Sequence record: PQ471516.1
DNA: 64,000 bases
Direction: 5' to 3' (one strand)
From: Escherichia phage Turkey5
Position numbers and translations under genes: made by a program. The notes beneath the pieces are model-generated. The model had not been told where the DNA came from, searched no databases, and saw only the letters and a program-made list of their open reading frames with translations. Each line of letters starts with the position of its first letter. Position 1 is the first letter of the stretch. Shown one piece after another: positions 36,591 through 37,598 of this stretch.

Positions 36591-37598
36591 ATGGCTAAAA
36601 AAATTAACGAAGCACAAGTTAAAATCGATATCGCAGGTCTAGAATCTGAAGATTTAGAAACCCTATCACGTATGCTTGCACTAGCTGGTCAAGCTGAACG
36701 CCAAGCACCTACTGTTGCTCCAGTTCCTTCTATGGGGTCTATGACCCCATCTCTCTCCCCAATTGAACCACTAGATATGGATTCTTTAGGTGGTAGCGAA
36801 GAAGAAGTTGGTGTAGAAGTAGGGGCTGATGTTGCTGAACCAGTACAAGATCCACTAGATTCAGCAGTTGATAGTTTATCTGCTGATGTAGGTGATTTTG
36901 GTGCTGATGATGAAATTGAAATGGATGCAGAAATTAGTGCTGATCCAGTAGGCGATGATTTCAGTGCAGAAGAAGAAGTTGAAGATATGGGTCTAGGTCT
37001 TGGTGGTCAACCGACACTAGAATCTGTTGAAGAAGAAGAGGAAGAAGAAGTAATAGAAGAAGAATTCGATTTCAGCCGTATGCTTTCCCTAGCTGGTATT
37101 GATGACGAAGACGATTCCTATTCAGTTGAAGACAACCCAGATACTGAAGTTAAAATGGCAGAGAATCAATTCCTACCAGACCTATCTATTTCTGAAGAAG
37201 ATGAGTCCAGTGATACTACTTCATTTGGTCCTTATCCTTCTGAAGCTGACGCTGTTCGTGATGCACAACGCAAGACTAATGGTGTTGAAGGCGATAACTT
37301 TGTCGTTACTGCTAAAGGTAATCAGTTCTACTGGAGTCGTGTTGTTCAAGAAGATCTTGACAATGTTCCAGATCCAGAGTACTATGACAATGAAGGAAAC
37401 GAGAACCGTGTTCACAAGTTTGAACCAAAATTCCCTGGTACTGCGTTAGGTGATAACCCACTAAACGTAAATGAGAGTGAAGAAGATGAAGACTCTCTAG
37501 AAGGTAATCCAGAACTAGAAGATGATTCTGATGAAGAAGTAGAAGATATCTTTGAAAGTCTCCAAGCTAAGTACGAGAAATTTCTTGGAGGGAAATAA
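36591..37598 (+). CDS. highly acidic protein with internal repeat
   Basis: Long Asp/Glu runs (EEEEEEVIEEEF); repeated LSRMLALAGQ and FSRMLSLAGIDD. Confidence 0.5.
   Translation: MAKKINEAQVKIDIAGLESEDLETLSRMLALAGQAERQAPTVAPVPSMGSMTPSLSPIEPLDMDSLGGSEEEVGVEVGADVAEPVQDPLDSAVDSLSADVGDFGADDEIEMDAEISADPVGDDFSAEEEVEDMGLGLGGQPTLESVEEEEEEEVIEEEFDFSRMLSLAGIDDEDDSYSVEDNPDTEVKMAENQFLPDLSISEEDESSDTTSFGPYPSEADAVRDAQRKTNGVEGDNFVVTAKGNQFYWSRVVQEDLDNVPDPEYYDNEGNENRVHKFEPKFPGTALGDNPLNVNESEEDEDSLEGNPELEDDSDEEVEDIFESLQAKYEKFLGGK

Follow-up and report, generated by a model that had tools for sequence, protein, structure and literature searches.

The 64,000-nucleotide stretch of Escherichia phage Turkey5 analyzed here (sequence record PQ471516.1; hereafter, the window) carries, at 36591..37598 on the plus strand, the coding sequence of a hyperacidic protein of 335 amino acids (aa), which starts with ATG, forms an open frame, and is orthologous to PHROG 15988. 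We propose, with confidence evenly balanced against doubt, that this acidic protein is packaged inside the head of a RaK2/121Q-like jumbo myovirus and would be the functional counterpart of the internal proteins and Alt of phage T4, not a scaffold. According to this proposal, the protein would be made late, alongside the products of a block of neck, tail-tube, and head-completion genes, as gene order suggests. It would then enter the core of the assembling prohead by means of short amphipathic helices ending in L-(A/S)-G, namely two copies of SRMLxLAG and possibly the C-terminal KYEKFLGG helix, a step suggested by a pattern-level, statistically supported likeness to the extreme C-terminus of the gp22-like scaffold; given this likeness, the same docking site would be used. 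A T4 gp21-like protease would trim the protein at I-N-E7 (followed by A), I-S-E202, and I-F-E322 (followed by S), as motif conservation suggests, and at least the N-terminal part would be retained in the mature virion, as proteomes of related phages indicate. The remaining polyanionic, disordered chain of ~300 residues might, speculatively, fill a DNA-free volume such as the inner body and/or exit with the DNA at infection.

Composition and family

Asp and Glu make up 96 of the 335 residues (28.7%) and Lys and Arg 5.4%, and the computed isoelectric point (pI) is 4.05 with a net charge of -78. The composition and pI calculations thus bear out the label "hyperacidic 335-aa protein" that a first-pass annotation had assigned from the letters alone. 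The annotation had also reported two copies of LSRML(A/S)LAG about 140 aa apart. We found SRML(A/S)LAG twice at a spacing of 136 aa: copy 1, SRMLALAG, lies at aa 26-33 (36666..36689, +) and copy 2, SRMLSLAG, at aa 162-169 (37074..37097, +), where it forms a predicted short helix after EEEFDF. The leading Leu is a feature of copy 1 only, Phe being the preceding residue at copy 2. The pair is the sole non-acidic 8-mer repeat at one mismatch or less in the protein, shuffling of the protein gave no comparable non-acidic 8-mer repeat (0/300), and SRML(A/S)LAG was not found in any other reading frame of the 64-kb window. Both copies are conserved throughout the family in the alignments; they share just 20 of 30 nucleotides and so do not reflect a recent DNA duplication.

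The window phage is, by sequence comparison, a RaK2/121Q-like jumbo myovirus: positions 33000-42000 are 99.3% identical to Escherichia phage vB_EcoM_JNE01 and show ~80% identity to 121Q, PBECO4, phAPEC6, and other Asteriusvirus jumbo myoviruses. An hmmscan search matched aa 1-335 of the acidic protein to positions 1-317 of the 317-position profile of PHROG 15988, "virion structural protein" (E 1.5e-116). Orthologs include 121Q gp560, RaK2 gp050, CBB_213 (CBB gp213), and phAPEC6 gp267c, which are 37-74% identical to the window protein over the full length and resemble it in synteny, motifs, and composition, with a computed pI of 4.05 each. There is no essential difference between them and the window protein, which has lost the L/I-x-E after the second motif copy (I-D-D instead of I-x-E). 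Full-length homologs are present in 72 phage records, with Escherichia, Klebsiella, Salmonella, Erwinia, Yersinia, Pectobacterium, Serratia, Cronobacter, and Xanthomonas as hosts; tblastn matches spanning the full length number 64 phage records, and a recognizable ortholog stands at the syntenic position in a Vibrio jumbo phage (2.275.O). In a large protein database, 90 protein clusters match the family, and a profile search of 1.84 billion representative proteins returned 80 relatives only, which makes the family a narrow one. The acidic protein matched nothing in Pfam (including sub-regions at E<=10), NCBIfam, or PADLOC, a sequence profile search of the PDB gave a single chance match (E 0.11), and the Pfam and NCBIfam searches found no enzymatic domain. 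The family is thus already catalogued, virion-associated, and conserved in RaK2/121Q-like jumbo phages, the window protein differs very little from a sequence already deposited, and the finding is real and largely ordinary. What is new is a reading of its sequence signals, which suggests a leader like a capsid-targeting sequence, conserved protease-type sites, and helices resembling the scaffold terminus.

Presence in virions

Virion proteomics, which the first-pass annotation had named as a check, is available through orthologs, and published proteomes of three phages contain the protein. CBB_213 was detected in the CBB virion with five unique peptides and 18.93% coverage (PMC5259590), RaK2 gp050 with one peptide and 5.3% coverage (PMC3622015 supplement), and phAPEC6 gp267c with one peptide and 4.9% coverage (PMC7247149). 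The annotation had left a choice between a scaffold, an internal virion protein, and a DNA mimic; these proteomes support the virion part, an internal location follows in the qualified form argued below, and neither the scaffold nor the folded DNA mimic has stood up.

In silico trypsin digestion of the acidic proteins yields very few peptides of usable size, and low peptide counts are expected because Lys and Arg are scarce and clustered. In phAPEC6 gp267c, the sole fully tryptic peptide equal to 4.9% of 326 aa is aa 12-27, IDIAGLESDDLETLSR (16 aa); in RaK2 gp050, the aa 12-27 peptide equals 5.3% of 304 aa, with one missed-cleavage alternative. Because the single phAPEC6 and RaK2 peptides fit aa 12-27, the conserved N-terminal module would appear to be present in mature particles. 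An attempt to identify the CBB peptides from the 18.93% coverage was dropped, as no integer count fits 309 aa.

The same proteomes bear on a different explanation, that the protein acts as an assembly factor for head completion or for joining neck and tail and occurs in particles only as a trace or contaminant. Its gene directly follows the tail-tube and gp4-like head-completion genes, two of the proteomes rest on one peptide each, and the phAPEC6 list includes the non-structural thymidylate synthase and the MoxR ATPase. We nevertheless regard this explanation as rather unlikely: CBB yielded five unique peptides, carry-over is hard to reconcile with detection in three genera, the paucity of Lys and Arg explains the low counts, and the protein has protease-type termini in common with bona fide head proteins.

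Predicted prohead-protease sites

The T4 protease gp21 cleaves on the C-terminal side of L/I-x-E. IPI-III and Alt reach the T4 core by way of N-terminal propeptides of 10-19 aa, which are subsequently cut off, and Alt is shortened at its C-terminal end as well (PMC9026906). The acidic protein begins with a putative leader, MAKKINE (aa 1-7; 36591..36611, +), which is predicted from its conservation to end in a T4-type prohead-protease site, I-N-E followed by Ala. In alignment A2 (75 homologs), E7 and A8 are invariant and N6 is at least 90% conserved; I-N-E7 followed by A is kept in 91-99% of homologs. The family keeps L/I-x-E at a fixed position in five columns, four of which are present in the window protein. 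[LI]xE occurs in 91% of the 75 homologs at E7, in 79% at position 172 just past the second motif copy (I-D-D in the window protein), in 56% at E191 (95% when V and M are allowed), in 96% at E202, and in 100% at E322.

Phage 121Q encodes a homolog of T4 gp21. Its head module, the equivalent of which lies outside the window, is ordered portal gp598, gp599, hyperacidic gp600, protease gp601, scaffold gp602, and capsid protein gp603; gp601 is 29% identical to T4 gp21 (E 1e-16), and RaK2 gp092 is likewise annotated as a gp21-type prohead protease. The 121Q capsid protein contains MLTE43 followed by S, comparable to FLTE65 followed by A in T4 gp23. Furthermore, 121Q gp599 (MLKDIFE, then S), gp600 (MANLKLLQE, then A), gp602 (MSKLEKLLKE, then S), and gp603 (MSQLLNE, then S) begin with leaders of 7-10 aa whose form is like that of MAKKINE followed by A. 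Besides gp560, two 121Q proteins of the gene block start with MKSKPQIDE and MQYNYRELVE, each followed by A. Overall, [LI]xE[ASG] lies within the first 16 aa in 9 of 106 annotated 121Q proteins versus ~2.7 expected, and seven of the nine belong to the head module (gp599, gp600, scaffold, and capsid protein) or to the block (gp556, gp560, and gp561). RaK2, CBB, and the Vibrio phage keep leaders of the 121Q type.

Within the window, the other block leaders on the plus strand are MKSKQQVDE followed by A (33364-33930), MSILNE followed by M (34498-35043), and MGYNYRELVE followed by A (37602-37976). Thus, four of the seven small block genes encode a conserved N-terminal hydrophobic-x-E, with A/S as the next residue in three of them and M/V in the remaining one; the signal is mostly L/I/V-x-E, with M-D-E in one Vibrio phage ortholog. 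Since four block genes carry this signal, the whole block may encode prohead-protease substrates.

From the conserved leader and the L/I-x-E columns, we infer that the acidic protein would be a substrate of the T4-type prohead protease and, as such a substrate must be inside the prohead, would be located there. Like T4 IPI-III and Alt, it has a short putative N-terminal leader ending in I-x-E followed by Ala, it belongs to a phage group with a gp21 homolog, and its orthologs are found in the particle; Alt undergoes a second, C-terminal cut, and the acidic protein has a candidate site near its C-terminus. The systems differ in that there is no sequence homology and that the T4 leaders are 10-19 aa long versus 7 aa; of the T4 proteins, the internal ones are small and basic and Alt has enzymatic activity, whereas the acidic protein is hyperacidic and disordered with a pI of 4.05.

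Likeness of the repeated helix to the scaffold C-terminus

Among 120 homologs of the 121Q scaffold, 117 end in an amphipathic helix of the form phi-x-x-phi-x-x-L-(A/S)-G-(I/L/M), for example, DDMAFLKELDVLSGINKK, IRKLAGLS, and IKRLAGL. Acidic residues precede both these terminal helices and the SRMLxLAG copies. The expression phi-x-x-phi-x-x-phi-[AS]-G-[LIVMQ] matched five times in 106 121Q proteins (shuffle mean 1.4): at both gp560 copies, at the scaffold C-terminus, and in two others. One match, in gp546, was set aside as a chance occurrence, as the window ortholog does not have it (...EFLASQ). A position-specific scoring matrix (PSSM) built from the acidic-family motifs alone ranked the terminal segment first of ~359 in 82 of 117 scaffolds. 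When scoring was limited, as a control, to the ten residues before AG, the median was -8.4 for scaffold C-termini and -25.6 for the remaining [AS]G[LIMV] sites of 121Q; the Mann-Whitney p-value for this comparison was 3e-18, which overstates independence because the scaffold sequences are interrelated.

These results raise the possibility, to which we give roughly one chance in three, that the SRMLxLAG helices would be docking elements using the site of the scaffold C-terminus. Protein localization in the T4 prohead core has been called "mysterious" (PMC9958956). A broader proposal would make SRMLxLAG a transferable capsid-interior docking signal shared by scaffold and cargo, a second kind of targeting in the T4 superfamily, with the anchored polyanionic chain serving in Asteriusvirus as a DNA-excluding matrix of the inner body; taken as a whole, we hold this to be unlikely.

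The likeness to the scaffold could also mean that the acidic protein is itself a true scaffold or core protein, which gives the T=28 shell its form before being degraded, like T4 gp22, gp67, and gp68. It shares with these proteins, and with 121Q gp602 and gp600, its acidity (as in T4 gp67 and gp22), a head-protease-type N-terminus, and the L-(A/S)-G end of the scaffold; its helices resemble the scaffold C-terminal type, and two strings match the N-terminus of T4 gp22, IAEAQKID versus INEAQVKID and SIFES versus DIFES. The DIFES/SIFES string of the C-terminal helix also occurs at the N-terminus of 121Q gp599 and at aa 21-25 of T4 gp22. However, a separate gp22-like scaffold (gp602) and the acidic gp600 stand beside the protease in 121Q. 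Profile-to-profile comparison with hhalign revealed no homology to 121Q gp602 (probability 0.07%), 121Q gp600 (0.3%), T4 gp22 (0.4%), T4 gp67, or T4 gp68, all values being <=1%, and BLASTP of the N-terminus against that of T4 gp22 gave no alignment, so the IAEAQKID/INEAQVKID resemblance is anecdotal. The acidic protein has 4 L/I-x-E sites versus 24 in gp602, its peptides persist in mature virions, its model is mostly disordered and not a coiled coil, and its gene lies far from the head module. A scaffold role is therefore very improbable. The 121Q gp600 gene (L008 34280-35128, outside the window) lies between the portal and prohead-protease genes and encodes a protein of 282 aa with a pI of 4.06; it is not homologous to the acidic protein and is probably the counterpart of T4 gp67/gp68.

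Several observations weigh against a packaged internal head protein. L/I-x-E carries little information in a Glu-rich protein, with ~5 sites expected by chance and a median of 5 observed, and the 7-aa leader is shorter than the targeting sequences of T4. The reverse PSSM, made from scaffold C-termini, gave the gp560 motifs no high rank, and the hhalign comparisons described above gave no homology. A single peptide underlies two of the three proteomes. The gene is ~60 kb away from the head module, beside neck and tail-tube genes, and the T4 internal proteins are basic while this one is extremely acidic. Cleavage and head location are predictions for all family members. The cryo-electron microscopy paper on phiKp24 contains nothing on internal proteins or processing.

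If the protein is packaged as proposed, its leader of 7 aa, together with two or three helices ending in L-(A/S)-G, would be candidate cargo-loading signals that are short, conserved, and mutable, and such loading tags would help in filling very large capsids with foreign proteins. Should all of this prove wrong, the family is one further conserved virion protein in an already sequenced phage group.

Architecture of the acidic protein

We examined the layout of the protein with alignments A1 and A2 and an AlphaFold2 single-chain model. Conserved islands stand amid poorly conserved, disordered acidic sequence; the mean predicted local distance difference test score (pLDDT) of the model is 59.8, with 129 residues below 50, and the predicted helices fall exactly at the motifs.

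The most conserved part of the family is aa 1-36, with the consensus MxKKINEAxVKIDVxGLESxDLETLSRMLALAGQAE. Behind the leader, the most conserved module in A1 and A2 is aa 8-36 (AQVKIDIAGLESEDLETLSRMLALAGQAE; 36612..36698, +), where the model predicts a helix at aa 19-37 with a pLDDT of ~73-81. The Vibrio jumbo phage ortholog and distant metagenomic proteins also keep this module. The relatives farthest removed have INEA...LSQMLSLAGQAE at ~aa 115-130, behind an extra N-terminal domain; downstream come an acidic region and between one and three copies of a helix of related sequence, e.g., IAEALRIAGV. One such gene adjoins a T4 gp15-like gene on a 52-kb contig. In these relatives (P0128, P0136, P0144, P0150, P0151, and P0156; L009 8001-9563), the internal module is preceded by ...ITPVITENxMxKLNE followed by AQY, the extra N-terminal domain is ~115 aa long, and the C-terminal domain is different and basic (...ETAKSMYAKK..LDRRYIEKLI..). 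Cleavage at the L-N-E site would turn the extra N-terminal domain into a long propeptide.

The region rich in Asp, Glu, Gly, Pro, and Ser at aa 38-157 (36702..37061, +) has no Lys or Arg, is predicted to be disordered (pLDDT mostly <50, low column conservation), and makes up the bulk of one 126-aa tryptic fragment (aa 38-163). It is followed by the second motif copy, which has a predicted helix at aa 161-167 with a pLDDT of ~76. Here, F159 is invariant in A1 and at least 90% conserved in A2, A168 is invariant in A1, and D160, M164, L167, and G169 are at least 90% conserved. A further island, LPDLSISE (aa 195-202; 37173..37196, +), corresponds to the conserved LLPDLS(L)xE with L/I-x-E at E202; P196, D197, and L198 are invariant in A2.

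The sole confidently folded part is a predicted beta-alpha-beta-beta mini-domain of 40 aa (FGPY..TNG..F..YW.R; aa 211-250; 37221..37340, +) with a pLDDT of >90. G213, P214, T229, N230, G231, F237, W248, and R250 are invariant in A2, and structure searches with aa 211-250 gave no significant fold match. Some metagenomic homologs (P0025, P0043, P0052, and P0068) contain two or three tandem copies. The pattern GPF.SE..A......TNG...F.....G.YW.R also stands by itself in short proteins, P0152 among them.

Toward the C-terminus lies the island PGTALGDNPL (aa 282-291; 37434..37463, +), with G287 and N289 invariant and A285, L286, D288, and P290 at least 90% conserved. A second acidic tract separates it from a C-terminal amphipathic helix at aa 317-335 (VEDIFESLQAKYEKFLGGK; 37539..37595, +), which contains the fully conserved I-F-E followed by S at E322; the model places the helix at residues 317-332 with a pLDDT of ~86.

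This architecture bears on the idea of a co-injected anti-host effector, in which the protein would be a polyacidic nucleic-acid mimic similar to Ocr or ArdA that is delivered in the manner of T4 IPI and titrates host DNA-binding or defense proteins as soon as it has been ejected. Extreme acidity and presence in particles agree with such a role, and T4 offers a precedent, ejecting the internal proteins packaged in its head, of which IPI inhibits a restriction enzyme (PMC9958956). T7 Ocr and ArdA share a very low pI and phage origin with the acidic protein. They have compact folds with a B-DNA-like charge array and are expressed early, whereas the acidic protein is largely disordered, its gene stands among structural genes, its family occurs in virions, and searches of solved structures gave no match. 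Its acidic regions form no rigid charge-array fold and are poorly conserved, conservation being highest in the hydrophobic helices and the mini-domain; it resembles no Pfam, NCBIfam, or PADLOC family; and the family is strictly syntenic and core-like, unlike variable anti-defense cargo. An effector role thus appears quite unlikely. A folded DNA mimic is not supported, as the model has no rigid fold and the PDB gave no sequence or fold match; polyanionic mimicry by a disordered chain is conceivable.

Possible relation to the inner body

The heads of 121Q and phAPEC6 contain a phiKZ-like inner body that is radiation-sensitive and visible by bubblegram imaging, measuring 91 x 18 nm in phAPEC6 (PMC5646251, PMC7247149), and no phAPEC6 protein resembles the phiKZ inner-body proteins (PMC7247149). 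Binding of DNA is implausible for a chain that is disordered and has a net charge of -78; a packaged chain of this kind would therefore have to occupy a DNA-free volume, which makes inner-body membership an attractive possibility. Ejection into the host as a polyanionic decoy is the other possibility.

A stronger version holds that the acidic protein builds the inner body as a DNA-free polyanionic core rod that runs along the portal axis and has the 350-kb genome wound about it. In favor of this version, the structure is seen in 121Q and phAPEC6, phAPEC6 has no protein resembling those of phiKZ, the acidic family is virion-associated in three proteomes, its charge makes DNA binding implausible, and it has protease-type sites, as do the processed inner-body proteins of phiKZ. 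The inner-body and ejection proteins of phiKZ, 201phi2-1, and SPN3US are multiple head-internal proteins of jumbo phages that are cut after Glu by a gp21-related protease, and the genus of the window phage has an inner body as phiKZ does; the link of the acidic protein to it is conjecture. The cleavage motif of phiKZ is S/A-x-E versus L/I-x-E here, and the phAPEC6 study reported no sequence similarity. Detection by one peptide is not a sign of a major component, although there are few usable tryptic peptides; the family extends beyond the genera in which an inner body has been sought; and bubbling has been attributed to DNA-embedded proteins, which suits DNA-binding proteins at least equally. 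We therefore give this version a low probability and prefer the less specific reading of a packaged internal head protein.

Gene neighborhood

The acidic gene belongs to a tightly packed, syntenic block at 32905..38357 (+) with intergenic gaps of -1 to 30 nucleotides (nt), placed after the tail sheath and tail tube genes. The first gene of the block encodes a T4 gp4-like head-completion protein (32905-33333, +), and seven small genes follow on the plus strand at 33364-33930, 33961-34494, 34498-35043, 35057-36568, 36591-37598 (the acidic gene), 37602-37976, and 37980-38357. The gene order of the block is identical in 121Q, RaK2, CBB, and the Vibrio jumbo phage. In 121Q, phAPEC6, RaK2, CBB, and Vibrio phage 2.275.O, the acidic gene sits between the gp4-like gene and an N4 gp24/gp25-like ATPase-VWA pair.

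The downstream boundary of the block is marked by two perfect sigma-70-type promoters (38382..38501, +), at 38382-38409 and 38474-38501, each with 12/12 consensus matches and consisting of TTGACA, a 16-nt spacer, and a TG-extended TATAAT. They form two near-identical promoter units in the 313-nt intergenic region 38358-38670, ahead of the MoxR-type ATPase gene. As two such promoters follow position 38357, the MoxR ATPase and DUF2201/VWA pair is read as a separate transcription unit, and the promoters suggest a strong host-polymerase (early) unit directly after the structural block. A functional link between the acidic protein and the ATPase/VWA pair was considered and dropped, as the two consensus promoters intervene. 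The T4 late-promoter octamer TATAAATA has zero copies on both strands of the whole window (1-64000), while dinucleotide-preserving shuffles gave an expectation of 6.9 +/- 2.6; this absence may reflect avoidance or a differing late-promoter consensus.

Two neighbors within the block have features of their own. The gene at 35057-36568 (+) encodes a 503-aa protein (PHROG 16305, "virion structural protein") in which aa 9-101 are duplicated at 295-386 with 31% identity (E 1e-10); the RaK2 ortholog has 315 aa only, so the copy number of the repeat differs between genera. The 181-aa product of 34498-35043 (+) is labeled "Hsp70 heat shock protein" by PHROG 16152 and RefSeq, yet it matches neither the HSP70 family nor any other in Pfam; 121Q and CBB annotations call it structural, and the Hsp70 label looks like annotation carry-over. 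Conserved features of this protein are an N-terminal L-x-E and an amphipathic helix (...QLLRMLS) at the C-terminus.

Downstream of the block, 38671-41503 (+) encodes the conserved pair of a MoxR-type AAA ATPase (N4 gp24-like) and a DUF2201 metallopeptidase/VWA protein (N4 gp25-like), for which annotations vary ("HNH endonuclease" or "Zn-dependent hydrolase"). The ATPase ortholog of phAPEC6, gp265c, was detected in the virion proteome with six peptides and 19% coverage (PMC7247149).

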